Source: Ignavibacteria bacterium
GTDB lineage: Bacteria; Bacteroidota; Ignavibacteria; Tepidaquicellales; OLB5
Length of the DNA: 54,475 nucleotides
Assembly (NCBI GenBank): GCA_013140565.1
Contig: JABFSP010000207.1
Coordinates: forward strand, 1 to 54,475
Reading direction: 5' to 3'
Below, piece after piece: positions 14,905-43,789 of the stretch. Made by a program: the position numbers and the translations under genes. The notes below the pieces were generated by a model. It saw only the letters and a list, made by a program, of their open reading frames with translations. It was not told the DNA's origin and did no database searches. How positions within the stretch are numbered: position 1 is the stretch's first letter; each line of letters opens with the position of its first letter.

Positions 14905-14907
14905 CAC

Positions 14908-15897: not shown

Positions 15898-15911
15898 ACA
15901 GGATAATTCTT

Positions 15912-17030: not shown

Positions 17031-17129
17031 TCATTTTTTTAAATTATTTTACCTTTATGTAGTATTTTCATTGTGATAATATTAATTTATGTGGATTTTT
17101 GTAATTAATTAAACTTATTTTATATATTT

Positions 17130-17699
17130 ATGGAATTTAAAAGCTATAAAAAACTTGTAACTGATACTATGGATTCAGTAGATCAGGCTGAAATTGATAA
17201 CTTTATTGACCTGATTGTAGACGCCTATAAAAACGATAAGTTTGTTTTTGTAATTGGCAATGGAGGCAGCTCAGCTAATGCTTCTCATTTGGCACAGGAC
17301 CTGGCAAAAGGTACCAAAGTACATCCGGTACACGAAGTAAGATTAAAAGCATTAAGTTTGACAGATAACACTCCTTTTTTAACCGCACAGGCAAATGATG
17401 AAGGTTACGATACAATATTTGAACAGCAGCTTGTAACTTATGCAAAAGCAGGAGATTTAGTTATTGCAATTAGCGGTTCGGGCAACAGTCCGAATATTAT
17501 CAAAGCTATTGATTGGGCAAACAACAATGGCATGGTTACAATTGGTGTTACTGCTTACGATGGCGGAAAGTTATACAAGATTGCTCACCATAAACTCCAC
17601 GTTCCTCTAAATGAAATGTGCACTGCAGAAAGTATTCACTCAATTGTATTTCATTATGTTATTCTTGAACTCAGAGAAAAATTCAAGCAGCTTAACTAA
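17130..17699 (+). CDS. SIS-domain sugar-phosphate isomerase, phosphoheptose isomerase (GmhA)-like
   Basis: GNGGSSANASHLAQDL and ISGSGNSPNI SIS motifs. 189 aa. Confidence 0.75.
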   Translation: MEFKSYKKLVTDTMDSVDQAEIDNFIDLIVDAYKNDKFVFVIGNGGSSANASHLAQDLAKGTKVHPVHEVRLKALSLTDNTPFLTAQANDEGYDTIFEQQLVTYAKAGDLVIAISGSGNSPNIIKAIDWANNNGMVTIGVTAYDGGKLYKIAHHKLHVPLNEMCTAESIHSIVFHYVILELREKFKQLN

Positions 17700-17724
17700 A
17701 TTTTTTGTAAATAATCCAAACAAT

Positions 17725-21985: not shown

Positions 21986-23755
21986 TTATTTTGTTATTAT
22001 CATTTTCTTTGTGCTAGTAAAACTGCCTGATATCATTTTGTAAAAATAAACACCGCTGGAAATACCGGCTGCGTTAAAATCAGTTTCATAAGTGCCTGCC
22101 TGCATTTTGTGATTTACAAGTGTAGCCACTTCCCTGCCGGTAATATCATAAACCTTCAGGAGCACATTTCCGGCTTCAGGCAAAGAAAAACGTATCCTTG
22201 TAGATGGGTTAAACGGATTTGGATAATTCTGGAATAATCCAAATGCAAACGGTACTTCGTTACCAATAGGCTGGATCCCAATAACTCCGCTTCCTTCTAC
22301 CGCAGTATATCTGCCATTTTTAAGTACATTGTAAGATCTATCCACATTGCCGTTTGTCCAGTTAATAACAATTGAATCAGCCTTATCAGAAGTGCCAAGA
22401 CCGATTATCAGTTCTACATCATCACTGCTTAAATAGCTGCTGCCGCCCAGAATAACCTGGCGATTTATAGAACCACCGGCATATGAAGTTACTACAGTAC
22501 CAATTGCATCCTTATTGGTTTGCATTCCAATGCATTTAAGTTTTATCCAGTTATTGCTGCCGCCGCTGTTTTTATAGAAATGGGCCACTGAATCTCTTGA
22601 CATTGTAGCGCATATATCAGGATAGCCATCGTTATTATAGTCTCCCTTTGCAATTCCGTATGAAAAAGTGCTGTCTCTTATGCCAATGCTGAAACCAATA
22701 TTCGAAAATGTGTTGTTCCTGTTATTTTTGTACAATACATCACACATATCAATTCCCGCTGCTGCCGATGCGTACAGATCAACCCAGCCGTCATTATCAT
22801 AATCAACAAAACTGTTTCCCCAGCACTCTTTATTAATTGTTGTATTTGTAGGTACTGCAACATCTGTAAAAGTACCGTTGCCGTTATTTCTGAAAGTAGC
22901 ATTTCCCGGCGGTCCGTTGCTTACATGCATATCAAATAAACCGTCATGATTATAATCGCCCACAGCAATACCCATTGCATCAAAATAACACATTGTGTTT
23001 GATGAGTATGTTATATCCTGGAACGTTCCATTTCCAAGATTTTTGAACAGAGTGGAGCGCTGATGCTTATCCATAGCCAGGTAAATATCCTGCCAGCCAT
23101 CCATATCAAAATCGAAAATTACAATAGCAAGTGGTTTTTTGTATAAGCTGTCTTTTGCGCCTGAAGAATTTGTAATATCGGTAAATGTTCCGTTGCCATT
23201 ATTCCTGTAAAAATAATTTGGCTGTTCGCCCGCTCCTTCAATATTTCCGTAATTTCCTATATAGAGGTCAATATATCCGTCACGGTTAACATCGCCCCAG
23301 GCCGCTGTTGTTGTTTGATACATAAACGGGATACTGATACCGGCACTTGTAGTAACATCACTAAAGGTTCCGTTGCCGTTATTTTTATATAGTCTGCTTC
23401 CGGAGTACCAGCTTGTCAGGTAAACATCTCTCCACCCGTCATTATCATAGTCACCCCATACCACGGATTTTAAACAGTCACCGTTAAAATTGATTCCGGT
23501 CTGAGAAGTTATATCTGTGTAGATACCATTATCATTCCTGTAAAAAATGAAATTCGTTCTGCCGGCAACCAAAAGGTCAACATCACCATCATTGTCATAA
23601 TCAGCAAAGCCGGCTCCGCCGCCCGGAATGTAATAATCGTCAAAATAAGTGGATGTAATTCCAATTTGCTGAGCTACGTTTGTAAAGGTTTGTGAAAATA
23701 TATTAGTGCTTAAAAACACTAATAAAATGCCAAAAAGTAAAATTTTTACTTTCAT
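21986..23755 (-). CDS. FG-GAP/VCBS-repeat protein with UnbV/ASPIC-type module and T9SS C-terminal sorting domain (CRTAC1-like)
   Basis: Signal peptide MKVKILLFGILLVFLSTNIFSQ at the internal Met. Repeats of GDYDNDGW.D.Y and FYRNNGNGTFTD. ASPIC-like segment NKDAIGTVVTSY..GGSSYLSSDD..LIIGLG. CTD is LFQNYPNPFNP...SGVYFYKM..KKMIITK. Confidence 0.8.
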   Translation of the reverse strand: MKVKILLFGILLVFLSTNIFSQTFTNVAQQIGITSTYFDDYYIPGGGAGFADYDNDGDVDLLVAGRTNFIFYRNDNGIYTDITSQTGINFNGDCLKSVVWGDYDNDGWRDVYLTSWYSGSRLYKNNGNGTFSDVTTSAGISIPFMYQTTTAAWGDVNRDGYIDLYIGNYGNIEGAGEQPNYFYRNNGNGTFTDITNSSGAKDSLYKKPLAIVIFDFDMDGWQDIYLAMDKHQRSTLFKNLGNGTFQDITYSSNTMCYFDAMGIAVGDYNHDGLFDMHVSNGPPGNATFRNNGNGTFTDVAVPTNTTINKECWGNSFVDYDNDGWVDLYASAAAGIDMCDVLYKNNRNNTFSNIGFSIGIRDSTFSYGIAKGDYNNDGYPDICATMSRDSVAHFYKNSGGSNNWIKLKCIGMQTNKDAIGTVVTSYAGGSINRQVILGGSSYLSSDDVELIIGLGTSDKADSIVINWTNGNVDRSYNVLKNGRYTAVEGSGVIGIQPIGNEVPFAFGLFQNYPNPFNPSTRIRFSLPEAGNVLLKVYDITGREVATLVNHKMQAGTYETDFNAAGISSGVYFYKMISGSFTSTKKMIITK

Positions 23756-23837
23756 GTCTGCTCCATTTTGTGAATTTTCTTTATAGTTATTATAGAATAA
23801 TAATATTATTAAAATCATATTACAATACAAATAAGTA

Positions 23838-23871
23838 AAAAAAAAGCCTCAAAATATTACTATTTTGAGGC
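23838..23871 (-). terminator. Rho-independent terminator downstream of the 23897-25270 gene
   Basis: Perfect 11-bp stem GCCTCAAAATA / TATTTTGAGGC with a 4-nt loop, followed by T8 on the minus strand. Confidence 0.65.
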
Positions 23872-23896
23872 AAAAAATGCAATTTTCCTAAATTAT

Positions 23897-25270
23897 TTAC
23901 TTAATCAGCAGCATTTTCCTTGTTTGTGTAAAACCTTCCGCAACAATAGTGTAAAAGTAAATCCCGCTGGCAAGTTCACCGGCATTATAACTAATGGTGT
24001 GATTTCCGGCTGCAAAATATGAATTGACAAGTTCATTTACCTGTTTACCTGTTACATCCCTTACAGTTATGCTGAGATTTGCTCCCTTTGGAACGGAAAA
24101 GCTAATCACTGTTTCGGGGTTAAACGGATTCGGATAGTTTTGCTTTAATTCAAATTTTTCCGGTATCGAATTATTGTTGCCATTGATACCCACCATATTC
24201 ATACAGGGACCTTCAATATTTGTAAAAAATAATGATTCAGTTCTGTTGGAATTTGTGTTTGTTGTATATCCGCCTGTAGTGTAAACAATATCAAATCCCT
24301 TGCCGCAGGCTTTATAATTCGATCTTGCCAGCGTATTATCCGGTAAGCCCGGCTGCCATGATTGCGTGCAGAAATTCCAGAAATGGGTCTGTGCTGTGGG
24401 AATTGAGCCGCCAATTGCCCCTCCTGTGAACATAACGCCAACACCGGTACCTTTAACGGCAACATACGATGCCATTCTGGTAATAGGTCCTGCAGGATAG
24501 CCCGCTATTTGTGTCCAGGTTATACTCATGTTTGAAATGTTTATAACACCCTTATAACAATTCGCAACTGATACGCCGCCTGTTGTATAACCGCCTGCTG
24601 TGATAATAGTATCTCTGTATAATCCGCCTCCAAGCATTGCATTCTGGATCGGAAAATCATTTGTGTAAGAATACGAATTTGAAAATGTATTATAGATCTG
24701 AACTTTGTTGGTTTTTAGTGCATTCTGGCCAAAGTAACCGTCACCGCCGCCAATAATAATTACTACTGATTCACTGTGCTTTAATACCAGCGCGTCTGTA
24801 ATTTTTGTTAGCATATCAGCTTTGGTTTCCCATGAATTTGCAAGTACATTATACTTCAGGGTTTTTCCCAGGGAGTTCGGAGAATTTCCTCCAAATACAT
24901 AGATTTCAGTTCCGCCATTCATTGTTATTGCGGTTCCTGAAGATATCTGGTGCGGCATTGTTGAATAATTGTTCTGCCAGGTATTGGTGGCCAGATTCAG
25001 ACGCGCGACCCGCCTTTGATCGGCCGAAGAATTGCCACCTCCAAATTGATAGAGGTAAGCTACGCCTGCAATTTCCACATAAGCGCAGCAACTCCTTGAT
25101 ACTGAATTGGGTGAATTTGATAAAATTGACCAGTTCCCGGATAAGTCATATTGGGATGGTTCAGGGGTATAATAACTTCCATGCGTGAAATTCTCGTCAT
25201 AGTCCTGGTTTTGAGCCTGGACTACTGAGAAGCTCATCATAAAAGCTATTAAAATGCTCAAAATTTTCAT
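23897..25270 (-). CDS. Kelch-type beta-propeller protein with T9SS C-terminal sorting domain
   Basis: Signal peptide MKILSILIAFMMSFSVVQAQ (internal Met). Blade signatures with a GG doublet (YLYQFGGG, IYVFGGN, IIIGGGDG, ITAGGY, MFTGGA, YTTGGY). CTD is LKQNYPNPFNP...SGIYFYTI..RKMLLIK. Confidence 0.6.
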   Translation of the reverse strand: MKILSILIAFMMSFSVVQAQNQDYDENFTHGSYYTPEPSQYDLSGNWSILSNSPNSVSRSCCAYVEIAGVAYLYQFGGGNSSADQRRVARLNLATNTWQNNYSTMPHQISSGTAITMNGGTEIYVFGGNSPNSLGKTLKYNVLANSWETKADMLTKITDALVLKHSESVVIIIGGGDGYFGQNALKTNKVQIYNTFSNSYSYTNDFPIQNAMLGGGLYRDTIITAGGYTTGGVSVANCYKGVINISNMSITWTQIAGYPAGPITRMASYVAVKGTGVGVMFTGGAIGGSIPTAQTHFWNFCTQSWQPGLPDNTLARSNYKACGKGFDIVYTTGGYTTNTNSNRTESLFFTNIEGPCMNMVGINGNNNSIPEKFELKQNYPNPFNPETVISFSVPKGANLSITVRDVTGKQVNELVNSYFAAGNHTISYNAGELASGIYFYTIVAEGFTQTRKMLLIK

Positions 25271-25398
25271 ATAATTTCTCCTTAAATTGAATAATTTTTT
25301 TGTTTCCCCCTGCTTGTAGTTAAAATAACTACACCGAAGAAGTGATTCAATCACGTCTTCAGTGTAGGCTTCAATTTTTTTTAGAAATATGTTAAAAT

Positions 25399-26694
25399 CT
25401 ACTTAATTAGGACCATTTTTTTCGTATCCACAAACGTACCTGCTTCAATTTTATAGAAATAAACTCCGCTAGCAAAACCGGTTCCATCAAAAACTACCTG
25501 GTGAGAACCTGCGTTCATTAATTCGTCGGAAAGCACTGCCACTTCCCTGCCAAGAAGGTCCGAAATTGTAATTCTCACCTTTTCAGAGGTTGGAATCTCG
25601 TACATTATCCTTGTTTGCGGATTAAAGGGATTCGGATAGTTCTGCATCAGCCTGTATTGAACCGGTATACTGTTGCCCTCAATTCCTGTGAGCGGTCCGG
25701 TACAATTGAGAAGGCATGTATCAGCGAACACATCAAGCGGTCTTGTAGTTTGCCCCTGTATCGAGCCTCCTGCACACCATATCTTAACACCCGGCCGGTT
25801 ATTGCAATAAGTAATACTTGCTGAAATTGATCCATAAAGATTATTGGTCCTGATCGGTTTGCCGTCTCTGTAAGTCCACGCTGATGTGGTTGTATCCCAG
25901 ATAGCAACAGAATCATTGCCTGAACCTCCGCTGATCTCGCCCATAATTACATAGAACTTACCCATGATAGCTGTGCCGCCGGGCCTGCTGGTTGGCACCG
26001 AAATATTTGTTCTCTGCTGCCAGGTTATTTGCAGGTGGTTTGCAGGATTTATTGTACCTACCCAGAAATCATTTCGGAAACTGGAAGAAAAGCCTGCACA
26101 AACAAAAAGTTTATTTCCAAGAATTCCGCCTGCAAAACTGCGTCTTCCGTTACCTGAAGATATTTGAGTTGCCTGTGCCCATGTATTGGTATTTACATTA
26201 TATACCTGGATCAATGTCTCGTAGGTGTTCCAGCCTCCCATCATACAGTAGATCAAACTATCCCTGTAACATTCGGCAACGTTACCTGTCACCGGTGTGG
26301 GAATATCCGCAAGTGCACTCCAGGTGCCTGTACTTACATCGTAAACAAATGTTTCGGCAGTACCGGTAGCAATAGCGGTATTTCCGCCGCCAATGTAATA
26401 TATCTTATTTCTGCACACTACAAGATCACCGCCGGTTTTAGCAACCGGTGTTCCGGCACCTGTATTCCAGTTGTTTGCGCTGATAGAGTATTTATAAAAA
26501 ATTGTTGATGGCGCGCCAGTTGATGACCCTCCGGCCACATATATAGTATCACCAAGCACTACAGAAGCATGACCCCATATAGAACCGGTACCCGGCATTA
26601 CAGGAAAATTTCCGCACCATTGATTAGGCTGAAATATCTGGGAAAACGATGTAAAAGTTAATAGAAATAAACAAATAGAAAAGTATTTTTTCAT
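25399..26694 (-). CDS. Kelch-type beta-propeller protein with T9SS C-terminal sorting domain
   Basis: Signal peptide MKKYFSICLFLLTFTSFSQ (internal Met). Blade signatures IYVAGGS, IYYIGGG, CMMGGW, LFVCAGF, IWCAGGS. CTD is LMQNYPNPFNP...SGVYFYKI..KKMVLIK. Confidence 0.6.
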   Translation of the reverse strand: MKKYFSICLFLLTFTSFSQIFQPNQWCGNFPVMPGTGSIWGHASVVLGDTIYVAGGSSTGAPSTIFYKYSISANNWNTGAGTPVAKTGGDLVVCRNKIYYIGGGNTAIATGTAETFVYDVSTGTWSALADIPTPVTGNVAECYRDSLIYCMMGGWNTYETLIQVYNVNTNTWAQATQISSGNGRRSFAGGILGNKLFVCAGFSSSFRNDFWVGTINPANHLQITWQQRTNISVPTSRPGGTAIMGKFYVIMGEISGGSGNDSVAIWDTTTSAWTYRDGKPIRTNNLYGSISASITYCNNRPGVKIWCAGGSIQGQTTRPLDVFADTCLLNCTGPLTGIEGNSIPVQYRLMQNYPNPFNPQTRIMYEIPTSEKVRITISDLLGREVAVLSDELMNAGSHQVVFDGTGFASGVYFYKIEAGTFVDTKKMVLIK

Positions 26695-26830
26695 GATTCC
26701 ACCCCCTGGAAAATTTGTTCTAAACAATATTTTACTACCTTAAAATAGGTAATGTAGGGCGTTAAAGCAATAAACATAATAGTTAACTAAAAACGCTATT
26801 AAATATGTAAACATATAAATAACAGTAATA

Positions 26831-26860
26831 AAAAAACCCGACTATTTCTAAGCGGGTTTT
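26831..26860 (-). terminator. Probable rho-independent terminator downstream of the 26883-28664 gene
   Basis: Stem AAAACCCG / CGGGTTTT with a 12-nt loop and a T-run on the minus strand. Confidence 0.5.
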
Positions 26861-26882
26861 ATGGAATAAACAAATTTAAAAA

Positions 26883-28664
26883 CTATTTTACCAGAAGCAT
26901 CTTCTTTGTTTCTGAGAAATCATTAACTTTCAATGTATAGAAATAAACACCGCTTGAAAGTGCAGTTGCGTCAAATGTTACCTGGTAGGTTCCAATTTCA
27001 TACGGATCCTGAACCAATGTCATTACTTCTCTGCCAAGTATATCATAAACCTTCATGTCAACAAATCCGCTCTTTGGAATCGAGAACTGGATAACAGTTA
27101 CAGGATTGAATGGATTCGGATAGTTCTGGCTCAGTGAATAAACCTGAGGAATAACATTACCAATAGGCTCAACAGCAACCAAATTACAATTTGCACCCGG
27201 TATCGGGAAAGAAACTGTATCAAAGGTGACTGTTCCGTTAGCTGTTCCGTTAAATCCGCTTACTGAATCAACTAAGTTGTTATCTAAATGCCATAATCCT
27301 CTGAGTCCGGTTGAGTTGTTGAACTGTGATGGATATTTTCTGCATTTGTTAGAGTCAATTGCGCCCTGTGTTCTGGCAACAGTCCAGAGTCTTAATTCTT
27401 CAATGTTTCCGTTTCCAGCATCAGAATTTCCTCTTCCGATTCTCATTTCGTTAGCTGAGCTTCCCGGGGTTCCTGCTAATGGTACTGTTGAAACCAAAGC
27501 GCCATCTTTATAGAACCTTACATTCGTTCCGTCAAATGAAGCAGCAATATGTGTCCAAACTAACGGAGTTACAGTAAAAGCTGTTGCTGTAGCAACAACA
27601 CCCTGCAATCTTACGAACGGGATCATTGTTGTTGCACTGATACCTAACTGATAATCGAAAGAAGCTGCGCCCTTGTTTAAAACTGTAGCAGCGGTAGTTA
27701 TACCACCCGGTTTTACCCAAGCTTCAATTGTCAGATTTGTGAAACCGATCATACCTGACTGGTGCGGAATTGAAACAAAGTTCGTATTTACTCCTGGTGT
27801 AGGAAGGTTCATGGCGTAATTCTGAACACCTGGTGAACCGCCCGGAGGTAATATTGCCATACCTGTAGCCTGAGCTGTGTATGAGCAAAGAACCGGTCCT
27901 AATGTACCTGTTGTTGTATCTACTTTTCTTAATTCTGGTCCTACTGCGTAGTCCATTGCGTAGAATGTGAAATCACTGTTATCAACACTTCCATCCTGAC
28001 CGAAGTTCAAATTCTGGCCAAGTGGTCCAACAAGTGTGAATACACCTGTTGTTTTGTTAGCTTTGTATAAGTTATCCGCAACGATATCAAGTGCGAACAG
28101 GCTATACTGTGCGCCTGTACGGCCAAGTAATGTGATACCGCCTGCGCATACTGCTGATGCTGCACCTATTGGAGTGCAGGCACCGGTTGTCATATTGATC
28201 GTGAAGATCTGTGACTGTGTTATGCTTGTTGAAAGACCATAAACGTTTGTTCCATCCCAGCACATACCTGTGAAGTTTGTCTGTGGAACGCCTGTCATGT
28301 TGAATACTAATGTATGTGTACCTGTTGTGGTATCAATTGACCATAACTGGAACGGTGATGACTGGTTGTATGTGTAAACAACACCATTCCTGTACATCAA
28401 ACCACCCGGAAATGTTATTGTGAAAGGAGCACCAACGTTTGTGATGGTACATGATTCTGTGAAAGCTTTACCGAACTGGAAAGTCGGTGATGAAGAGATC
28501 TGTGAGAAATAACGTTTGCCGATCGATGCATCAAAATCACCTGTTACGGGACCCTGAACCAAATTCTGAACCGGAGCCGGTCCAACTGAATGAGGTGCAT
28601 CCTGTGCGTTTGTAACGAATGTTAAAACCAAAACAGCAAACAAAAGCGAAAAGATTTTTTTCAT
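26883..28664 (-). CDS. Paralog A: unassigned N-terminal domain + LamG/concanavalin-A-like lectin module + T9SS C-terminal sorting domain
   Basis: Signal peptide MKKIFSLLFAVLVLTFVTNAQ (internal Met). The family N-domain runs from DAPHSVGPAP to ATGMAILPPG. A LamG_3-like segment follows (LTIEAWVKPGG...WTHIAASFDGTNVRFYKDGALV...EMRIGRG...GNIEELRLW). CTD is LSQNYPNPFNP...SGVYFYTL..KKMLLVK. Confidence 0.7.
   Translation of the reverse strand: MKKIFSLLFAVLVLTFVTNAQDAPHSVGPAPVQNLVQGPVTGDFDASIGKRYFSQISSSPTFQFGKAFTESCTITNVGAPFTITFPGGLMYRNGVVYTYNQSSPFQLWSIDTTTGTHTLVFNMTGVPQTNFTGMCWDGTNVYGLSTSITQSQIFTINMTTGACTPIGAASAVCAGGITLLGRTGAQYSLFALDIVADNLYKANKTTGVFTLVGPLGQNLNFGQDGSVDNSDFTFYAMDYAVGPELRKVDTTTGTLGPVLCSYTAQATGMAILPPGGSPGVQNYAMNLPTPGVNTNFVSIPHQSGMIGFTNLTIEAWVKPGGITTAATVLNKGAASFDYQLGISATTMIPFVRLQGVVATATAFTVTPLVWTHIAASFDGTNVRFYKDGALVSTVPLAGTPGSSANEMRIGRGNSDAGNGNIEELRLWTVARTQGAIDSNKCRKYPSQFNNSTGLRGLWHLDNNLVDSVSGFNGTANGTVTFDTVSFPIPGANCNLVAVEPIGNVIPQVYSLSQNYPNPFNPVTVIQFSIPKSGFVDMKVYDILGREVMTLVQDPYEIGTYQVTFDATALSSGVYFYTLKVNDFSETKKMLLVK
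27844..28664 (-). repeat. Copy 1 of a near-identical direct repeat of about 0.82 kb (partner 36162-36979)
   Basis: By eye the nucleotide sequence matches 36162-36979, apart from scattered substitutions and one codon indel near the signal peptide. It covers the whole N-domain coding part of paralogs A and E. Confidence 0.85.
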
Positions 28665-28794
28665 TGTTTTGACTAGTTTGTTTTTAAAATAGTTGGTTGA
28701 TTGTATATAAAAATTAACACTAATTGTAATTATTTCAAGCCTAAAATTCATTTAATTAAATAAAACCTTAAAATCCCGCTGAAAATGAGCTTTT

Positions 28795-30195
28795 TTACTT
28801 TATTAAAACCATTCTTTTTGATACAGAATTCTGAAAATCCGATAAAATATAAAAATAAACTCCGCTTGCAAGCCCCTGGCCATCGAATGTAATTTCATAT
28901 GAACCGCTCTTTAAACCGGTGAACGCGTAACTTCGAATCAGCTTCCCGGTAATATCATAAACTCTAAAACTCAGATCATTCACCTCACCGGTTTTTACAT
29001 AATCAAATTTTATTTTCGTAACGGGGTTAAACGGATTTGGATAATTTTGATGCAGCTTAAATACTGAAGGGATCTCATTTGAAATGTTCACAATGCCGAT
29101 TGGCGGAGGTGTAACAAATGAATACTTCTGAGCTGTGTTCAATACATTTGGATTTTTAAATCCTCCGAATAAATAAAAATAATTTGAATCAAGTCCGCTG
29201 ACCGCGGAAAAAGTAGAAATTAAAGCGGCTGAATCTCCGGAAGCAGGCAAAAAATTTGTCCAGTAGCCGGCTGAATCAGTCATATATAATCCCCAGATAT
29301 TATTTAAAGAAGTACCGCTGTTCAATGCCGGACCCATCAGCATGTAATTTTTCCATTTTGTTCCGGCTACCCTGTAAACCGGGCTGCTGAATGGCACATT
29401 ACAGTAAAATTGCCAGTTTATAAGGATAGTATCCGCACTGTAATAATTTACAGTTCCTTTAAAAACTGTATTCAGAAAGCCGGCGCTGTAACCCCCGAAA
29501 ACAAAAATTGAGGAATCTTCACCTGTGATGGTGAATTCCGCATGAGCAGTTGAATTGTTAACAGGGAAAGGTGTAGAATTCTGCCAGAACCCAAGCTCAG
29601 GATCATAGATACGCACACGGTTAATTGCACCCTGGAAACCGTGAGTTGAACCGCCAACAACTACGATCAAACTGTCATTTATCACGGTAACTGCCGGTTC
29701 ATGAACCCAGGGAACAGGCATTGTATCGGCAACAGACCAGCTGTTTTGAAGAAGAGAATACCTGAAGATCTTACCATCAGCGGTGCTGAAGGTTGAATCA
29801 ATTGAACCGACAAGATACAGGTTGCTTTTAACTTTAACAAGCTTCCCTGACCATCTTCCTTCCGGCAGCAAAGCTGCCTGCTGATATACGCCCGTTGAAA
29901 TGTTATACCACCAGCAAGTATCATTTGGTATAGTGCTTTGGTTGGCTCCGCCGCAAATAAATATCCTGTTTGAAAGCGAATCGTAATATGTATTTGTACC
30001 CATTAAAGCTATAGGCAGCGGGTTTAGTGTGCTCCAGGTACCAATAACAGATATAGTAGTATCACCTAACCGATAGGTATCAGGATAATTTACTTTACTT
30101 GCGGAATTATCCTCAATGTAAAAAGGATTTTCCTGAGAAAAAGCAGTGCTTACACTTATAAAGAAAATTGATAAAGCGATTATTCTATTCAGCAT
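28795..30195 (-). CDS. Kelch-type beta-propeller protein with T9SS C-terminal sorting domain
   Basis: Signal peptide MLNRIIALSIFFISVSTAFSQ. Blade signatures IFICGGA, LYLVGSI, VVVGGS, IFVFGGY, FYLFGGF. CTD is LHQNYPNPFNP...SGVYFYIL..KRMVLIK. Confidence 0.6.
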   Translation of the reverse strand: MLNRIIALSIFFISVSTAFSQENPFYIEDNSASKVNYPDTYRLGDTTISVIGTWSTLNPLPIALMGTNTYYDSLSNRIFICGGANQSTIPNDTCWWYNISTGVYQQAALLPEGRWSGKLVKVKSNLYLVGSIDSTFSTADGKIFRYSLLQNSWSVADTMPVPWVHEPAVTVINDSLIVVVGGSTHGFQGAINRVRIYDPELGFWQNSTPFPVNNSTAHAEFTITGEDSSIFVFGGYSAGFLNTVFKGTVNYYSADTILINWQFYCNVPFSSPVYRVAGTKWKNYMLMGPALNSGTSLNNIWGLYMTDSAGYWTNFLPASGDSAALISTFSAVSGLDSNYFYLFGGFKNPNVLNTAQKYSFVTPPPIGIVNISNEIPSVFKLHQNYPNPFNPVTKIKFDYVKTGEVNDLSFRVYDITGKLIRSYAFTGLKSGSYEITFDGQGLASGVYFYILSDFQNSVSKRMVLIK

Positions 30196-30275
30196 TTACA
30201 AGGTTATGGATATTTTAGCTGACTTTCAATTTAAAAATCAGAAGTAATATTTTATTGTTAAATTTATGTTTAATA

Positions 30276-30566
30276 CTATTTAACCAAAAGCATTCGTTTT
30301 GTTTCGGTAACTCTATCTGTCTGAAGCGAATAAAAATATATCCCCGAAGCAAGCTGTGAAGCGTCAAACTTCACTTCATACGTGCCCGGATTTTTATGTT
30401 CATTTATTAATGTTGTCACTTCCCGCCCGAGTATATCATACACTGCAAGCCTTACATTTCCACTTTCGGGAATTCCGAACTTAATATTAGTCACAGGATT
30501 AAACGGGTTGGGGTAGTTTTGGTTCAGAAAGTAATAATTGGGTATTTCCATTGTTTGAATACCGCC
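30276..30566 (-). repeat. Sorting-domain-coding 3' end, highly similar to 31879-32169 and 33539-33829
   Basis: The last 96 codons plus stop of paralogs B, C and D differ at only a few positions (GGIQT[MI]EIPNYYFL[NE]QNYPNPFNPVTNIKFGIPE[ST]GNVRL[AV]VYDILGREVTTL[IM]NEHKNPGTYEVKFDASQ..). The rest of each gene is far more divergent. Confidence 0.8.
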
Positions 30567-31856
30567 AGCAACATAATAATATTGTATTACAAGACACCAC
30601 TTCATTAATATGCCGGTTTCCCCGCCTGCAGTATCTGTGATCAGCAATTTCCAGTATCCGTCAGAGGGAATATAATTGAAAGGAAGCAAAGGATTCGAAG
30701 GCTTGAAAGTCCCTGTAAACGGAGCTGAACCCGAAGATACCGGTACAGCGGAAGAATCATTAAGAACTGTTTGTATGAAATTATCACCGGAACCTCCAAC
30801 ATGATCGATAATTTTCACACCGATTAAGCCCTTTTGCAGGTAAAAAGCAAGTTCAGAATCCCAAGTGTGCAACACCGAATCAATCCTCACGTTCAGATCA
30901 GAAACGAAAATATTGTTACCCAGTAAGACCTGAACTGAATCAACTAAGATACTGCTATCATTTATGGGTTTGTTCAGGTTACTTCTGCAAAAAGTATTAG
31001 TAGGAGGGCCTGGTGGAAGAGGAGGAAGGTCCCTCAAAGTCATCCCTGTAGCTTGCGCAGTATAAGTACATAAAACCGGACCCAAATTTCCGGTAACAGT
31101 ATCAACTTTCCGCAATTCCGAACCCGTAGAATATGCTATAACATAAAAAGTATTATCAAATGGGTCCACACAGCCATCCTGACCAAAATTGAGATTTATT
31201 CCAAGAGGTCCAACACGGGTGAAAACACCCGTTGTTTTGTTTACTCTGAACAGGCTATCAGTAACTATATCAAGCACAAACAAACTGTACTGTGCGCCTC
31301 TGCTCCCGAGTAATATAATACCACCATCACATACAGATGATGCTACGCCAATTGGGGTACAAACACCGGTTGTCATATTTATTGTGAACATTTGGGTCTG
31401 TGTAAGTGATGTAGATAACCCGTAAACATTTGTCCCGTCCCAGCACATTCCTGTAAGGTTTGCAAATGGTACCCCTGTTATGTTAAAATATAATGTATGG
31501 TTACCTGAGACAGTATCAATTGTCCACAACTGGTATGGCGATGATTGGTTCCACGTAAATACTACTCCGTTTCTGATCATCAATCCACCCGGGAAAGTTA
31601 TTGTGAAGGGTGCACCGACATTGGTTATAGTACATGATTCCGTAAAAGATTTGCCAAACTGGAAAGTTGGCGATGATGATGTCTGTGCAAAATATCTATT
31701 ACCTATCGATGCATCAAAACCTGCCATTACAGGACTTTTTGCAAAATCCTGTAATGGCGCCAATCCAACTGAATGCGGTAGATCCTGTGAAAGCATATTA
31801 ATTGAAATAAAAACAATTGCAATCAGAATCTTAAACCAGGTTTTTAAAATGTTCAT
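30276..31856 (-). CDS. Paralog B: unassigned N-terminal domain + proprotein-convertase-type P-domain + T9SS C-terminal sorting domain
   Basis: Family N-domain (..SSSPTFQFGKSFTESCTITNVGAPFTITFPGG..). Pro-rich linker PPLPPGPP. P-domain hallmarks LNVRIDSVLHTWDSELAFYL...GGSGDNF...GYWKLLITDTAGGETGILMKWCLVIQY. CTD is LNQNYPNPFNP...SGIYFYSL..KRMLLVK. Confidence 0.7.
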   Translation of the reverse strand: MNILKTWFKILIAIVFISINMLSQDLPHSVGLAPLQDFAKSPVMAGFDASIGNRYFAQTSSSPTFQFGKSFTESCTITNVGAPFTITFPGGLMIRNGVVFTWNQSSPYQLWTIDTVSGNHTLYFNITGVPFANLTGMCWDGTNVYGLSTSLTQTQMFTINMTTGVCTPIGVASSVCDGGIILLGSRGAQYSLFVLDIVTDSLFRVNKTTGVFTRVGPLGINLNFGQDGCVDPFDNTFYVIAYSTGSELRKVDTVTGNLGPVLCTYTAQATGMTLRDLPPLPPGPPTNTFCRSNLNKPINDSSILVDSVQVLLGNNIFVSDLNVRIDSVLHTWDSELAFYLQKGLIGVKIIDHVGGSGDNFIQTVLNDSSAVPVSSGSAPFTGTFKPSNPLLPFNYIPSDGYWKLLITDTAGGETGILMKWCLVIQYYYVAGGIQTMEIPNYYFLNQNYPNPFNPVTNIKFGIPESGNVRLAVYDILGREVTTLINEHKNPGTYEVKFDASQLASGIYFYSLQTDRVTETKRMLLVK

Positions 31857-31878
31857 AGTTTATTTTGATATTAAGGTG

Positions 31879-32169
31879 CTATTTAACCAAAAGCATTCGT
31901 TTTGTTTCTGTAACTCTATCCGTATGCAATGAATAAAAATATATCCCCGATGCAAGCTGTGATGCGTCAAACTTCACTTCATACGTGCCCGGATTTTTAT
32001 GTTCATTCATTAATGTTGTCACTTCCCGCCCGAGTATATCATATACAACAAGCCGTACGTTTCCAGTTTCCGGAATACCGAACTTAATATTTGTAACGGG
32101 ATTGAACGGATTTGGATAGTTCTGCTCTAAGAAATAATAATTCGGAATTTCTATGGTCTGAATGCCGCC
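31879..32169 (-). repeat. Sorting-domain-coding 3' end, highly similar to 30276-30566 and 33539-33829
   Basis: See 30276-30566. Confidence 0.8.
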
Positions 32170-33465
32170 ACCCATGCAATCATATGTGATAATAAGACAC
32201 CAGCCTGATAAGGTACCCGAATCTCCGCTGGCAGTATCGGTTATAACAAGCTTCCAGTAGCCGTCACCCAAACCCCATGAAAAATTAAACGGAGCAAGTG
32301 GTGTTGATGGAATGTAAGTGCCGGTAAATGGAGCAGTCCCGGATGCAATTGGTATCGTGGCAGAATCATTTAAAACTGTATTGACAAAATTATCGCCTGA
32401 ACCTCCCACTTTATTAATAATTAACGCTCCAACGCTGCCCTTTCTTAAATAGAAAGTCAGGTCTGAATCCCAAGTGTGTGTTACGTTAGTGATCCTGACA
32501 TTTACATCATATATTGCGCAATTTGGACCCAATAAAACCTGAACCGAATCAAAAGTAGTTCCATGATTTATTATCGGTACATTTATGCCTGTTCTGCATA
32601 TTGTTGTTTGAGGCCGCGGAGGAGGAGGCGGTGCTCCCGAGGCAACACAAGCCAATCCTGTTATCTGAGCTGTATATGTGCAAAGTGCAGGTCCAAAACC
32701 CCCCGTACCTTCGTCAAATTTTCTTAATTCAGGTCCCGTGGAGTATGTTGCGCAATATATTGTATTATCATTGGGGTCAACTGAGCCATCCTGTCCGAAA
32801 TTAATATTTATACCCAGCGCGCCATGTAATGTAAATACACCCGTAGTCTTATTTACCCGGTATGAATTATCAGCAACAATATCAATTACATATAAAATTG
32901 ATGCTGCGCCCAGCCTCCCAAACATAGCAATACCACCGGCACACACTGCAGAAGGCGCTCCAATTGGAGTGCATACTCCGGTTGTCATATTAATGGTAAA
33001 GATCTGTGATTGTGTGATACTGGTTGAAAGTCCGTATACATTTGTTCCATCCCACATCATACCGGTTAAATTCGTCTGCGGAACTCCTGTCATATTAAAT
33101 AAAAGTGTTGTTACCCCGCTTACTGTATCAAGTGACCATAACTGGTAAGGCGCAGACTGGTTGTAAGTAAATACAACACCATTCCTGTACATCATTCCGC
33201 CCGGAAATGTAATGGGTACCCCTACGCCTATGTTTGTGACCGCACAGCTTTCCATGAACGCTTTGCCAAGCTGAAATGTTGGTGAGGATGATACCTGTAT
33301 AAAATAACGCGTGCCAATTGCAGCATCATTTTGGTGAACAAAAGGCCTATTATCATTAACAATCGGCGCGGGTCCAACTGAGTGCGGTGCGTCCTGTGAA
33401 TACAATTCAGTTGCTGCAATTGCCAGAATCAAAATTATTGAAAATAAAGTAATTTTAGTTTTCAT
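31879..33465 (-). CDS. Paralog C: unassigned N-terminal domain + P-domain + T9SS C-terminal sorting domain
   Basis: Signal peptide MKTKITLFSIILILAIAATELYSQ. Family N-domain, linker APPPPPRP, then P-domain VNVRITNVTHTWDSDLTFYL...GGSGDNF...GYWKLVITDTASGDSGTLSGWCLIITY and a CTD. AAGGAG lies 9 nt upstream of the ATG. Only 22 nt separate it from paralog B. Confidence 0.7.
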   Translation of the reverse strand: MKTKITLFSIILILAIAATELYSQDAPHSVGPAPIVNDNRPFVHQNDAAIGTRYFIQVSSSPTFQLGKAFMESCAVTNIGVGVPITFPGGMMYRNGVVFTYNQSAPYQLWSLDTVSGVTTLLFNMTGVPQTNLTGMMWDGTNVYGLSTSITQSQIFTINMTTGVCTPIGAPSAVCAGGIAMFGRLGAASILYVIDIVADNSYRVNKTTGVFTLHGALGININFGQDGSVDPNDNTIYCATYSTGPELRKFDEGTGGFGPALCTYTAQITGLACVASGAPPPPPRPQTTICRTGINVPIINHGTTFDSVQVLLGPNCAIYDVNVRITNVTHTWDSDLTFYLRKGSVGALIINKVGGSGDNFVNTVLNDSATIPIASGTAPFTGTYIPSTPLAPFNFSWGLGDGYWKLVITDTASGDSGTLSGWCLIITYDCMGGGIQTIEIPNYYFLEQNYPNPFNPVTNIKFGIPETGNVRLVVYDILGREVTTLMNEHKNPGTYEVKFDASQLASGIYFYSLHTDRVTETKRMLLVK

Positions 33466-33500
33466 TTTAGTCTCCTTTATTTTGTATCCGTTTAATCATC

Positions 33501-33520
33501 AATCCCGATAAATCGGGATT
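33501..33520 (-). other. Intergenic hairpin between paralogs D and C (possible weak terminator or mRNA stability element)
   Basis: Perfect 8-bp stem AATCCCGA / TCGGGATT with loop TAAA. There is no clear T-run on the minus strand. Confidence 0.3.
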
Positions 33521-33538
33521 TCTTGTTAAGTAACTTAG

Positions 33539-33829
33539 TTACTTAACAATCAACATTCGTTTTGTTTCAACTCCCCTAATTGTGTACAGTGAATAAAAAT
33601 ATATCCCCGATGCAAACTGTGATGCGTCAAACTTCACTTCATACGTACCCGGGTTTTTATGTTCATTCATTAATGTTGTTACTTCTCTTCCCAATATATC
33701 ATACACAACAAGACGTACATTCCCGCTTTCGGGAATACCGAATTTAATATTTGTTACAGGATTGAATGGGTTAGGATAGTTCTGGTTCAGGAAATAGTAA
33801 TTGGGAATTTCTATAGTTTGAATACCTCC
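33539..33829 (-). repeat. Sorting-domain-coding 3' end, highly similar to 30276-30566 and 31879-32169
   Basis: See 30276-30566. Confidence 0.8.
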
Positions 33830-35107
33830 GACCGGGCATTGATATGTTATAACAATGCACCATTTTACAAGGCTGCCGGTATCTCCGGTCGCAGTATCTG
33901 TGATAAGTAATTTCCAGGTACGCCCGGTTATTCCGGGATTCCCGTTAAAGACCGTAAGAGGGTTAGATGGCTTATAAGTCCCTGTGAATGGCACAGTACC
34001 TGATTCAATTGTGTTAGCAACCGAGTCGTTCAGTATAGTCCCGATAAAATTATCACCGGAGCCACCGACCTTATTAATTATTTTAGCGCCTATGTTTCCC
34101 CTTTGCAGATAAAAGCTAAGATCTGAATCCCAGGTGTGATAGACCTCATCAATCCTTACGTTCACATCATTTACTATACAGTCATCGCCCAGCACTCCGT
34201 ATATTGAATCAAGAATAGTGGAATGATCATTAATGGGTATATTTACCGTTCTGCAGGCGGTAATTTGGGGACCTATGGGCGGAGTATATATTATATCTCT
34301 CAATGCAATACCCGTACCCTGTGAAGTATATGAACATAATAAAGTACTGCCGGAACCGGATGATGTATCAATTTTCCTTAATTGCGGACCTGTGGTATAT
34401 GCTATCCAGTATAAAGCGCCGTCATTGTTATCAAACTGTGCATCCTGCCCGAAATTCGCGTCAACACCAAGCGGACCGATTAACGTGAATGCTCCTGTTA
34501 TTTTATTTACCTTAAAAAGATTATCGCTCACTATATCAATTGCAAATAATCCGTTGCGGTAATCCCTCCTGCCGGATATGGATATTGCTCCTGCACATAC
34601 AGTACTTGGCGTGCCAACCGGCGTGAAGACACCTGTTGTCATATTCGCAGTAACAAGCTGTGACTGCGTTAGATTGGTCGCGACACCGTAAACGGTAGTA
34701 CCATCCCAGGTTAACCCCGTCAAGTTTGCAAATGGAATACCCGTCATATTAAAAACTAATGTATGCACTCCTGTAACAGTATCTATTGAATAAAGCTGGT
34801 AGGGGGAGTTCTGGTTCCATGTATAAACAATCCCGTTTCGGTACATTAATCCGCCCGGGAAAGACATAGTAAACGGGGCACCTACATTTGTTACTGTGCA
34901 GCTTTCCATGAATGATTTGCCGAACTGGAAAGTTGGCGAACTTGAATGCTGGACAAATGCCCTTGTGCCTATCATATCAGTTTGAGTTTCGCTTGTAATG
35001 CCGGAATTATCGCCCTGGGGTGCCGGTCCCGCTGAAATTATCTTTTCTTGTGAAATTAGATTGATGCCGGAAAGAAGAAAACAAATTATAAGTATCAGTG
35101 TTTTCAT
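33539..35107 (-). CDS. Paralog D: unassigned N-terminal domain + P-domain + T9SS C-terminal sorting domain
   Basis: Signal peptide MKTLILIICFLLSGINLISQ. This is the most divergent N-domain but it is collinear (SSSPTFQFGKSFMESCTVTNVGAPFTMSFPGG..). P-domain is VNVRIDEVYHTWDSDLSFYL...GGSGDNF...RTWKLLITDTATGDTGSLVKWCIVITY, followed by a CTD. Confidence 0.7.
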   Translation of the reverse strand: MKTLILIICFLLSGINLISQEKIISAGPAPQGDNSGITSETQTDMIGTRAFVQHSSSPTFQFGKSFMESCTVTNVGAPFTMSFPGGLMYRNGIVYTWNQNSPYQLYSIDTVTGVHTLVFNMTGIPFANLTGLTWDGTTVYGVATNLTQSQLVTANMTTGVFTPVGTPSTVCAGAISISGRRDYRNGLFAIDIVSDNLFKVNKITGAFTLIGPLGVDANFGQDAQFDNNDGALYWIAYTTGPQLRKIDTSSGSGSTLLCSYTSQGTGIALRDIIYTPPIGPQITACRTVNIPINDHSTILDSIYGVLGDDCIVNDVNVRIDEVYHTWDSDLSFYLQRGNIGAKIINKVGGSGDNFIGTILNDSVANTIESGTVPFTGTYKPSNPLTVFNGNPGITGRTWKLLITDTATGDTGSLVKWCIVITYQCPVGGIQTIEIPNYYFLNQNYPNPFNPVTNIKFGIPESGNVRLVVYDILGREVTTLMNEHKNPGTYEVKFDASQFASGIYFYSLYTIRGVETKRMLIVK

Positions 35108-35315
35108 GATATGCAGTATTTAAGTGTGAAGCATGAATTTATAAAGGTAACTTAACAAATAAACTTCAAAAATACAATTATAGAATGGAGTGTTCAAAGA
35201 GTAAAAAACCACAAATAGCTTACTTTTTTGAGGTTTCTACCTGGCTACGAATGAGAGCATATAAAACACGTTGAGTGGAAATAAAACCGGTAAGTGCAAA
35301 TAAAACAAGTTGGGT

Positions 35316-35352
35316 CAAATAAAAAGCCCGTCCATATTTCTATGGACGGGCT
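35316..35352 (-). terminator. Rho-independent terminator downstream of paralog E
   Basis: Perfect 12-bp stem AGCCCGTCCATA / TATGGACGGGCT with a 4-nt loop, followed by TTTTTATTT on the minus strand. Confidence 0.7.
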
Positions 35353-35401
35353 TGTGTTATTAAATCAAGTTTTAATACAACAGATGTTTGTTCTTATAAA
35401 A

Positions 35402-36979
35402 TTATTTTACAAGTAACATTCTCTTTGTATCTGTGAATTCACCAGCTTCGAGTCTGTAGAAGTAAACACCTGATGATAATGTTGAAGCATCAAAGTTTAC
35501 ATCATAAGTACCTGCGTTTTTGAATTCATTAACTAATGTTTTAACTTCTCTACCTAATATGTCAAATATAACTAATTTCACGTTATCGCCTTTTGGCATT
35601 GAGAATTTAATTGATGTTGACGGGTTAAACGGATTAGGATAGTTCTGGCTTAAGCTATAGAAGTTAGGAATTTCAATTGTCTGAATTCCGCCAACCGGGC
35701 ACTGATAAGTAACTATTAAGCACCAGTTTGTTAATGCACCTGTATCGCCTGTAGCTGTATCTGTGATAACCAGTCTCCAGAATCCATCGCCTAAACCTGC
35801 ACCAAAGTTAAACGGAGCAAGCGGGTTTGAAGGTCTGAAGTTTCCTGTGAAAGGAGCTGTTCCTGAAGCGATTGGTGTAGCTGCTGAATCGTCTAATACT
35901 GTATTTGTGAAGTTATCGCCTGAACCGCCAACCTGGTTTATTATTAATGAACCAACTGAGCCTTTCTGGAGGTAGAATTTAAGATCTGAATCCCATGTAT
36001 GTGTTACACTGCCGATTCTTACGTTTACATCTAAAATTACGCAAGCTGAACCTAAAGCAACCTGGAGTGAATCACGTGAGGTTGAATGGTCATTAATAGG
36101 AACGTTGATACCTGTTCTGCAGATTGTTGTCTGAACACCAACCGGCGGAGGAGGAGCACCAGGAGGTAATATAGCCATACCTGTAGCCTGAGCTGTGTAT
36201 GAGCAAAGAACCGGTCCTAATGTACCTGTTGTTGTATCTACTTTTCTTAATTCAGGTCCTACTGCGTAATCCATTGCGTAGAATGCGAAATCACTGTTAT
36301 CAACACTTCCATCCTGACCGAAGTTCAAATTCTGGCCAAGTGGTCCAACGAGTGTAAATACACCTGTTGTTTTGTTAATTTTGTATAAGTTATCTGCAAC
36401 GATATCAAGTGCAAACAGGCTATACTGTGCGCCTGTACGGCCAAGTAATGTGATACCGCCTGCGCATACTGCTGATGCACTTCCGATAGGAGTACAAGCA
36501 CCGGTTGTCATGTTGATCGTGAAGATCTGTGACTGTGTTATGCTTGTTGAAAGTCCATAAACGTTTGTTCCATCCCAGCACATACCTGTGAAGTTTGTCT
36601 GAGGAACGCCTGTCATGTTGAATACTAATGTATGTGTACCTGTTGTGGTATCAATTGACCATAACTGGAACGGTGATGACTGGTTGTATGTATAAACAAT
36701 ACCATTCCTGTACATCAAACCGCCCGGAAATGTTATTGTGAAAGGAGCACCAACGTTTGTGATGGTACATGATTCTGTGAAAGCTTTACCGAACTGGAAA
36801 GTCGGTGATGAAGAGATCTGTGAAAAATAACGTTTGCCGATAGATGCATCAAAATCACCGTTAACCGGAGCCTGAACAGTCTGAACCGGAGCCGGTCCAA
36901 CTGAATGAGGCGCATCCTGTGCGTTTGTTACAGCCACGAAAGCGATAACAGCAAACAAAAGCGAAAATAATTTTCTCAT
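35402..36979 (-). CDS. Paralog E: unassigned N-terminal domain + P-domain + T9SS C-terminal sorting domain
   Basis: Signal peptide MRKLFSLLFAVIAFVAVTNAQ. The N-domain is almost identical to paralog A up to ..ATGMAILPPG. It then continues with linker APPPPVG, P-domain VNVRIGSVTHTWDSDLKFYL...GGSGDNF...GFWRLVITDTATGDTGALTNWCLIVTY, and CTD LSQNYPNPFNP...SGVYFYRL..KRMLLVK. Confidence 0.7.
   Translation of the reverse strand: MRKLFSLLFAVIAFVAVTNAQDAPHSVGPAPVQTVQAPVNGDFDASIGKRYFSQISSSPTFQFGKAFTESCTITNVGAPFTITFPGGLMYRNGIVYTYNQSSPFQLWSIDTTTGTHTLVFNMTGVPQTNFTGMCWDGTNVYGLSTSITQSQIFTINMTTGACTPIGSASAVCAGGITLLGRTGAQYSLFALDIVADNLYKINKTTGVFTLVGPLGQNLNFGQDGSVDNSDFAFYAMDYAVGPELRKVDTTTGTLGPVLCSYTAQATGMAILPPGAPPPPVGVQTTICRTGINVPINDHSTSRDSLQVALGSACVILDVNVRIGSVTHTWDSDLKFYLQKGSVGSLIINQVGGSGDNFTNTVLDDSAATPIASGTAPFTGNFRPSNPLAPFNFGAGLGDGFWRLVITDTATGDTGALTNWCLIVTYQCPVGGIQTIEIPNFYSLSQNYPNPFNPSTSIKFSMPKGDNVKLVIFDILGREVKTLVNEFKNAGTYDVNFDASTLSSGVYFYRLEAGEFTDTKRMLLVK
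36162..36979 (-). repeat. Copy 2 of the near-identical direct repeat of about 0.82 kb (partner 27844-28664)
   Basis: See 27844-28664. The offset between copies is about 8.3 kb. Confidence 0.85.
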
Positions 36980-37161
36980 AGTTTTTGTTTTCGTTTAGTT
37001 AAAAAATAGTTAATTGAATGACGCATAATATCATTTTTTAATCAGTATGTCAAGTGAAAATTTAATTAAATAATATTTTCAAGTTATTGCATTTAAATCA
37101 ATTTTTTAGCATTTTTGCGGAACTTAACCCAAACATATTTGCATCCTAAATCATTCCAATT

Positions 37162-43506: not shown

Positions 43507-43789
43507 CAAACTATAATAGTTTCCTTAACTGTAATATTAGTCAAAAAAGGATTGTTCTTCAATGTATTATAATATATCCCCCATATTCACGTTATTTTTA
43601 AATAAACTCTGATTTTTTGATCTTACATGTTGTTTTTACATCACGTAAATTAAGTATTATGAAGAAATCAAATCATCTAACCTAAACACGGTATTACGTA
43701 ACTTGTTTATATTAATTAAATTTGAAAATCTAATTAACTAAAACTATTATATGAATCTAGGGGATATATTCATTAATACTGGAGGAATC

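Follow-up and report, generated by a model that had tools for sequence, protein, structure and literature searches.

Five tandem genes of an Ignavibacteria bacterium encode predicted type IX secretion cargo with a probable β-propeller head

Results

Five paralogs with a common modular architecture

We analysed a stretch of 54,475 nt (“the window”) from an Ignavibacteria bacterium (contig JABFSP010000207.1 of GenBank assembly GCA_013140565.1), which contains a tandem family of five paralogous genes on the minus strand. The genes, called A to E here, encode proteins of 593 aa (A, 26883-28664), 526 aa (B, 30276-31856), 528 aa (C, 31879-33465), 522 aa (D, 33539-35107), and 525 aa (E, 35402-36979). 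They belong to a run of nine genes that lie next to each other on the minus strand (21986-36979) and all end in a type IX secretion system (T9SS) C-terminal domain (CTD). The order in this run is FG-GAP/ASPIC, Kelch, Kelch, A, Kelch, B, C, D, and E.

An alignment of the five proteins revealed a common architecture, i.e. a signal-peptide-like N-terminus and a collinear N-domain of ~250 aa, which are followed by a proline-rich linker, the middle module, and a conserved segment of 89 aa at the C-terminus. In paralog E, the signal peptide (aa 1-20) is followed by the N-domain (aa 21-269, 36173-36919), the linker, a P-domain of the proprotein convertase type (aa 281-431, 35687-36139), and the T9SS CTD (aa 437-525, 35402-35671). 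The N-domain, P-domain, and CTD are found at 34304-35050, 33824-34273, and 33539-33808 in D, at 32650-33396, 32164-32616, and 31879-32148 in C, and at 31038-31787, 30561-31007, and 30276-30545 in B. Paralog A has the same N-domain (27855-28604) and CTD (26883-27152), and its middle module is of the LamG type (Laminin_G_3, ~27357-27785).

The pairwise identities of the N-domains range from 56 to 76%, with the exception of A and E, which are 97% identical; all values are far above chance. The middle domains of B to E (~165 aa) are 59-73% identical. For the C-terminal segments the values are 60-67%, and those of B, C, and D are mutually 91-94% identical. Three cysteines are invariant in the N-domain (positions 72, 173, and 260 of A), and two further ones are invariant in the members with a P-domain (positions 287 and 420 of E). 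The mechanically derived open reading frame (ORF) of A reaches 28751, 29 codons upstream of 28664. We preferred the start at 28664 (MKKIF...) because it aligns with the other members and the upstream extension (28665-28751, minus strand) has no counterpart in the other paralogs. The DNA upstream of this start has low similarity to the region upstream of E.

An initial annotation of this DNA had described a tandem family of five with a collinear block after the signal peptide and several conserved cysteines, in agreement with the ORFs, the shared block (~250 aa), the identities of 56-97%, and the three invariant cysteines found here. It had also listed ten motif strings. Five of these match literally in all claimed members; in each of the remaining five, one substitution breaks the match in exactly one member, e.g. 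LDT for IDT in C, TQTQ in B, QLRK in D, LNVRI in B, and VPFTG in D. The description of the family as expanded, modular, and secreted is well compatible with the domains, the predicted signal peptides, and the CTDs; the list of modules in its title was incomplete, as the shared T9SS type-A CTD had been left out.

Secretion signals

A T9SS type-A CTD was detected in all five paralogs with two profiles, PF18962 (38-47 bits, cut-off 27) and TIGR04183 (40-47 bits, cut-off 23). The signal peptides were read by eye and have an n-region with Lys or Arg, a hydrophobic core, and small residues in front of a Gln. Likely cleavage sites include TNA↓QD, MLS↓QD, LYS↓QD, and LIS↓QE. The Gln is the predicted +1 residue in five of five paralogs (codons at 36917-36919, 28602-28604, 31785-31787, 33394-33396, and 35048-35050). 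An N-terminal Gln, which gives rise to pyroglutamate, after cleavage by signal peptidase I has been described as the “Q-rule” for Bacteroidetes, and a T9SS is probably present in Ignavibacteriae (PMC5837995). The combination of an N-terminal signal peptide with a CTD makes it very likely that A to E are Sec- and T9SS-dependent cargo; their actual export and surface attachment are what we infer from the sequence.

Well-known examples of T9SS type-A cargo are the gingipain RgpB and the Flavobacterium adhesins or lectins SprB and RemA, which have the layout passenger, Ig-like or other β-sandwich domain, and CTD. Like the type-A cargo of Bacteroidota, A to E have a signal peptide, a CTD, and a β-sandwich between passenger and CTD, and they are encoded in a cargo-rich region. 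They differ in that the host belongs to the Ignavibacteria, the passenger is a propeller of a domain of unknown function (DUF) family, and export is predicted.

The N-domain is most likely a β-propeller of the DUF4394/DUF6923 superfamily

An AlphaFold2 model of the N-domain, based on an alignment of 25 sequences, is all-β (pLDDT 83.6, pTM 0.81). It contains 20 strands in five sets of four, with disorder in the first 28 residues of the mature protein. A Foldseek search of the PDB with this model yielded 363 matches at E≤1e-3. The best 50 of these 363 are all propellers, among them Kelch, YWTD/LRP, TolB, and the designed Pizza/SAKe proteins, with TM values of 0.45-0.6 and identities of 7-16%. 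As judged from the model, these matches settle the class of the fold, but they give no close solved relative. The motif [IV][DN]xxTGxxTxxG recurs in the N-domain with a strict period of 46 residues, which agrees with five blades. Taken together, the N-domain is most likely a five-bladed β-propeller.

In Pfam searches, all five window proteins gave weak, collinear matches to DUF4394 (PF14339; 14-21 bits, cut-off 29.6) and no match to DUF6923 (PF21959) at E≤1. Higher scores were obtained for homologs. P0016, P0022, and P0025, which are 43-52% identical to E, exceed the cut-off of DUF4394, and P0016, P0003, and P0029-31 exceed that of DUF6923. A clean N-domain profile (A6) was then used for an exhaustive HMMER search, which retrieved 6,073 cluster representatives at E≤1e-3, of which 1,783 were at ≤1e-10 and 119 at ≤1e-30. 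Many of the matches are proteins of 2,000-4,500 aa with up to 18 copies of the domain, and these giant relatives also carry TSP3, Ig, CarboxypepD_reg, and BACON repeats. One protein, P0060, matches the A6 profile with an E-value of 6.8e-112 in 17 stretches and has Pfam scores of 283 bits for DUF4394 and 221 bits for DUF6923; the same regions reach 34.9 bits for Glu_cyclase_2 (cut-off 22.3) and 29.5 bits for Tachylectin (cut-off 29.8). Sequence-profile searches of the PDB with N-domain profiles of 5, 25, and 16 sequences returned noise or CTD matches only. We conclude that the N-domain is a divergent Ignavibacteria subfamily of the DUF4394/DUF6923 propeller-repeat superfamily, which is catalogued but uncharacterised. 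A to E share with other DUF4394/DUF6923 proteins the homologous domain and its predicted β-propeller fold. They differ from the many giant multi-copy relatives in having one N-terminal propeller each, followed by a P-domain or LamG module and a T9SS CTD.

The initial annotation had regarded the N-domain as unassignable and the array as a candidate for an undescribed system. That the N-domain represents a new catalytic or binding fold would be compatible with the scores of the five proteins, which are below all Pfam cut-offs for this domain, and with a word-indexed homolog search, which found only 31 relatives, the best ones in metagenome-assembled genomes (MAGs) of Ignavibacteria. In contrast, the model has a propeller fold, homologs pass the cut-offs of DUF4394 and DUF6923, and the 6,073 cluster representatives include strong DUF4394/DUF6923 proteins. 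Furthermore, the window showed no partner genes of an accessory, regulatory, or enzymatic kind that would be peculiar to the array; the neighbours are further T9SS cargo and housekeeping genes. We therefore consider a new fold in an undescribed system extremely improbable. The annotation itself had stated that a match to a named propeller would speak against its proposal, and the AlphaFold2 and Foldseek results, together with the link of the homologs and the profile to DUF4394/DUF6923, provide such a match, although to a functionally uncharacterised family. The proposal of an undescribed system was overstated, as the proteins are predicted T9SS cargo in a region crowded with propeller and CTD cargo.

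A diverged Kelch domain was also tried as a candidate and rejected, because Pfam yielded zero Kelch matches for the five paralogs, while the three interleaved genes match strongly. A Foldseek search of viral structures with the N-domain model gave generic propellers only. The best single structural match to the model in any of the libraries was found there, i.e. the BFVD entry A0A7D3V800_1, a protein fragment from the giant virus Fadolivirus (TMq 0.68, rmsd 3.6, 18% identity). Its label “ATP synthase subunit alpha domain protein” probably applies to another part of that protein.

The middle modules are P-domains in four members and a LamG module in the fifth

The Pfam profile P_proprotein (PF01483) matches B to E with 14-18 bits (cut-off 21), covering only the last 25 profile positions. 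A truncated member of the same family, P0026, is above the cut-off with 28 bits; homologs that are 35-56% identical to the middle domain of B to E carry PF01483, and distant relatives score up to 62.5 bits (P0047). A P-domain profile of 31 sequences matches the P-domain of the kexin-like protease ASP of Aeromonas sobria (3hjr/3wqb, residues 439-560; E 6.7e-5). The AlphaFold2 model has a pLDDT of 94.9 and a pTM of 0.88, and the top 26 PDB matches of this model in Foldseek are all P-domains of furin, Kex2, or ASP (E 1.7e-5 to 3.7e-4, TMq 0.47-0.57). The middle domain of B to E is thus a genuine proprotein-convertase P-domain with a jelly-roll fold, as had been proposed for four members in the initial annotation.

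B to E have this fold in common with furin, Kex2, and ASP. In contrast to the proprotein convertases, their P-domain follows a propeller, and a subtilisin/kexin catalytic domain is lacking. A motif scan of A to E for HExxH, HxxEH, and the subtilisin-type Ser motif was negative, and neither Peptidase_S8 nor any other peptidase domain was found with Pfam and NCBIfam, in accordance with the annotated lack of an Asp-His-Ser or metalloprotease motif. The P-domains of B to E are therefore P-domains without a protease, and they cannot fill the canonical role of stabilising a protease domain. The idea of a pseudo-protease was dropped after the empty motif scan. Protease-less P-domains had been seen as an oddity, but they are common among the matches. 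Many of these are proteins of ~263 aa that consist of a P-domain and a CTD only; in others the P-domain is joined to Big_5, GEVED, MAM-like, Ig, or PKD modules, and the NCBI name “proprotein convertase P-domain-containing protein” is already in use for some such proteins. In the literature searched, nothing was found that joins the proprotein convertase P-domain with type IX secretion.

The middle module of A was identified by Pfam as Laminin_G_3 (PF13385; 72.6 bits, cut-off 27.6, E 5.2e-20, residues 294-436), which confirms the LamG module that had been assigned to the fifth member. It is ~30% identical over ~60 aa to the syntenic LamG modules of other MAGs (loci L001, L003, L004, L007, and L008). 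The latter are 40-87% identical to one another, while the N-domains joined to the LamG modules are 94-97% identical. This implies that the LamG module (linker and LamG of A, 27153-27854) was replaced in the lineage of the window. A single-sequence HMM built from the window LamG missed the syntenic modules, which Pfam detects as LamG, because the window LamG belongs to a different LamG lineage.

Distribution and fusion partners

The distribution was surveyed in GTDB contigs with one genome per species. The family was found in 12 loci of MAGs of Ignavibacteria or “Chlorobi OLB5”, and there was one additional, weak match in Acidimicrobiia. The array is kept in at least six of these MAGs. L003 and L007 each contain four genes with N-domain and P-domain, a Kelch gene, a gene with N-domain and LamG, and further Kelch genes; OLB5 (L005) has three genes with N-domain and P-domain and three Kelch genes. 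The nucleotide identities between the window and the fetched loci are 75-90%, and none of the loci is identical to it. A look-up of the exact sequence of protein E in public assemblies had no match. A search of the literature on Ignavibacteria, T9SS, and Kelch yielded no results on this particular family.

Proteins of the close subfamily have an N-terminal propeller, then one of several modules, and, in every case, a T9SS CTD. The fusion partners are BNR (P0059, P0074), Kelch (P0062), LamG (P0063), Ig_7 or AIR9 Ig (P0070, P0077), fn3 (P0082), CARDB (P0088), GEVED with a P-domain and Ig or PKD (P0065, P0071), and a MAM-like module with a P-domain and Ig (P0068). By analogy, this pattern is that of a putative binding head on exchangeable β-sandwich stalks. 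P0062 (690 aa) is a natural fusion of a DUF4394-like propeller, a Kelch propeller, and a CTD, so that both gene types of the interleaved array are joined in one protein. The fusion hints at a functional link between the DUF4394-like and the Kelch propeller genes.

Purifying selection and domain-limited gene conversion

The pairwise dN/dS values of A to E are 0.05-0.18 wherever dS is unsaturated, which indicates that all copies are functional and under purifying selection. Diversifying selection across the paralogs was rejected at the pairwise level on the basis of the same values.

The high identity of the N-domains of A and E is reflected in a dS of 0.14, compared with >1.5 in other pairs. 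The gene-conversion tract has a length of ~660 bp; the copy in A (27842-28502, minus strand) is 97-100% identical to that in E (36160-36820, minus strand), and the 3′ edge of the latter lies exactly at the junction of N-domain and linker. Such a pairing of the N-domains of a LamG member and a P-domain member recurs within genomes, and the conversion always stops at this junction. The pair is 100% identical over ~700 nt in L003 (9926-11512 and 18171-19949), 100% identical over ~450 nt in L007 (3093-4658 and 7970-9721), where the positional partner differs, and 90-98% identical in bin.560 (L001 2481-4313 and L002 9926-11512). The converted pair of each genome clusters together and not with its counterparts elsewhere. 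Unexpectedly, recurrent gene conversion that is limited to the N-domain thus keeps the propellers of the LamG member and of a single P-domain member nearly identical in several genomes. As for the CTDs, those of B, C, and D (30276-30545, 31879-32148, and 33539-33808), with identities of 91-94% and dS values of 0.66-1.03, in comparison to N-domain identities of only 56-67%, form a second homogenised block within the array. The trees of N-domains and P-domains are discordant, and several paralogs form orthologous groups that are retained across species.

These mosaic identities (97% for the N-domains of A and E, 91-94% for the CTDs of B, C, and D) and the discordant trees could potentially be explained by a surface-variation cassette, in which recombination alters epitopes and enables evasion of phages or predators that use the proteins as receptors, the biochemistry of the domains being secondary. 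The recurrence of conversion in several genomes and the replacement of LamG in the lineage of the window are compatible with this explanation. However, conversion homogenises copies rather than diversifying them, the pairwise dN/dS values are low throughout, and the orthologous groups across species indicate stable, distinct functions and not a rapid turnover. We thus consider a surface-variation cassette very unlikely.

Proposed function: surface binding proteins rather than enzymes

The interpretation that we favour, with a confidence slightly above even, is that A to E are exported by the T9SS and serve in binding or adhesion without being catalytic, the propeller forming the head and the β-sandwich the second module. 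The signal peptide would direct the proteins via the Sec pathway to the periplasm, and its cleavage would probably leave an N-terminal Gln. Recognition of the type-A CTD by the T9SS would lead to the crossing of the outer membrane and to the removal of the CTD, so that the protein would be anchored at the surface or released. The exposed N-terminal DUF4394/DUF6923 propeller with its 46-residue repeat would represent the main ligand-binding head, and the β-sandwich behind it, i.e. the P-domain in B to E and the LamG/ConA-like lectin fold in A, would serve as a spacer and/or a second binding module. Tandem duplication would have produced heads that differ in specificity (56-76% identity), and recombination would shuffle heads, middle modules, and CTDs. 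The ligand would probably be a glycan, an exopolymer, or a protein of the biofilm matrix.

The confidence in this interpretation is approximately the product of two parts, the very likely cargo status described above and the preference for binding over catalysis, for which the balance tips moderately towards binding. In favour of binding, no enzyme family is matched by A to E in Pfam, NCBIfam, or PDB sequence-profile searches, and the presence of up to 18 domain copies in giant repeat proteins represents an architecture of adhesins and not of enzymes. Tachylectin-2 is a secreted, small, five-bladed propeller lectin with short repeats and one potential site per blade. Its resemblance to A to E is a functional analogy only, as the window proteins have no significant sequence match to it and no sugar-binding residues were identified in them.

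Several observations weigh against the interpretation. In the literature searched, neither DUF4394 nor DUF6923 is mentioned in any paper and there is no experimental characterisation of a member, and “binding” is therefore deduced from the architecture alone. The window proteins are below the Pfam cut-offs for DUF4394 (14-21 bits versus 29.6) and P_proprotein (14-18 bits versus 21), so that the family membership is based on transitive and structural evidence. The number of blades was derived from the secondary-structure string and the repeat period, and not from coordinates. No genes for the T9SS machinery were seen in the window, which is a part of the genome, although its 15 CTD proteins are indirect evidence for such machinery. 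In addition, the N-domain is the most conserved part of the proteins and contains numerous invariant residues (D, N, Q, R, and W), which could equally mark a catalytic centre. The combination of a propeller, a module similar to carbohydrate-binding modules, and a CTD is also usual in glycoside hydrolases that are secreted by the T9SS.

The last two points lead to an alternative explanation, in which the propeller would act as an enzyme outside the cell, such as a glycoside hydrolase or lyase, a lactonase-like enzyme, or a cyclase. The substrate would be bound by the P-domain or LamG module, and the paralogs would be secreted polymer degraders of differing specificity. A catalytic domain followed by a β-sandwich and a CTD is typical for T9SS-secreted enzymes, and several enzyme families adopt five-bladed propellers. 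The strong conservation of the N-domain with its many invariant polar residues and a dN/dS of ~0.1 would fit an enzyme, as would the regions of P0060 that exceed the cut-off of Glu_cyclase_2 (34.9 versus 22.3 bits). In contrast, none of the five proteins is matched by an enzyme family in Pfam or NCBIfam, nor by a PDB sequence profile, and the best 50 structural neighbours are nearly all binding or scaffold propellers, the sole enzyme listed, the gluconolactonase PpgL, being at rank 30. Moreover, a catalytic domain is not usually present in as many as 18 tandem copies within one giant repeat protein. An enzymatic function therefore seems rather unlikely to us, and binding remains our preferred reading.

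A more far-reaching version of the binding hypothesis is that propellers of the DUF4394/DUF6923 type are lectin or receptor heads that have so far gone unrecognised, the same head being kept by selection on two handles, the P-domain and LamG. The heads would act together with the interleaved Kelch proteins, as the fusion P0062 hints, and the array as a whole would serve the cell surface in the coordinated recognition of matrix polymers or partner cells. Selection of the same head on two handles would explain why N-domain-limited conversion occurred independently in at least four Ignavibacteria genomes. This version is speculative, and we regard it as unlikely.

The family is real and well delimited, and it probably consists of fairly ordinary surface or secreted binding proteins; it is not a new kind of system. 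If the proposed function is true, it is one more case of bacteria of the FCB group that fill their T9SS secretome with modular propeller proteins. The array offers a compact entry to the function of DUF4394/DUF6923, which have thousands of members, none of them characterised, and proteins of ~500 aa with a single propeller should lend themselves well to expression and to the determination of a structure. As a neat example from nature of concerted evolution at the level of modules, the gene conversion confined to one domain marks the N-domain as the unit under selection. No long-standing question is opened by the finding.

Genomic neighbourhood and transcription signals

The three Kelch-propeller genes of the nine-gene run, all of which encode a T9SS CTD and were identified with Pfam, are located on the minus strand at 23897-25354, 25399-26727, and 28795-30195. 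The last of these is interleaved with the paralogs and, according to synteny, belongs to the conserved array. The gene for the FG-GAP/ASPIC propeller with a T9SS CTD (21986-23830, minus strand) is the last one of the run. In total, 15 CTD proteins are encoded in the window, at 2521-4023(+), 6984-9023(-), 21986-36979(-), 43751-47458(+), 47690-48904(+), 49155-50735(+), and 52595-54202(+). At least 13 of the 15 have a propeller passenger, i.e. SBBP (two), BNR/YCF48-like (two), FG-GAP/ASPIC (one), Kelch (three), and the DUF4394-like family (five). The enrichment of propeller and CTD cargo in this lineage is striking.

The cargo run is flanked on one side by genes for an alpha/beta hydrolase and a PilM-like protein, dnaJ, and hrcA, and on the other side by an M20 peptidase gene and capsule/exopolysaccharide (EPS) genes. 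An upstream polysaccharide/capsule cluster at 10671-19419(+) encodes a DegT-type aminotransferase, a Bac_transf sugar transferase, an NAD-dependent epimerase/dehydratase, and a Wzi-like capsule assembly protein. The passenger regions of two CTD proteins, 43751-47458(+) with 1235 aa and 49155-50735(+) with 526 aa, have no Pfam match, and an ORF of 483 aa at 50767-52218(-) has no Pfam match whatsoever. These three genes are now less well assigned than the family of A to E.

Transcription signals were predicted with consensus scans only. The number of promoter-like sites in the region does not exceed the shuffled expectation (49 versus 47.8), while that of terminator-like sites is about twofold higher (22 versus 11.3). 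A strong hairpin resembling an intrinsic terminator, with a 13-bp stem and a T run, is located directly after E (35324-35353, minus strand). The best sigma-70-like promoter match of the region (37025-37053, minus strand; 11/12, with an extended -10 TG) lies upstream of E. The hairpin and the promoter-like site suggest that E may be transcribed apart from D, C, and B and the rest of the run.

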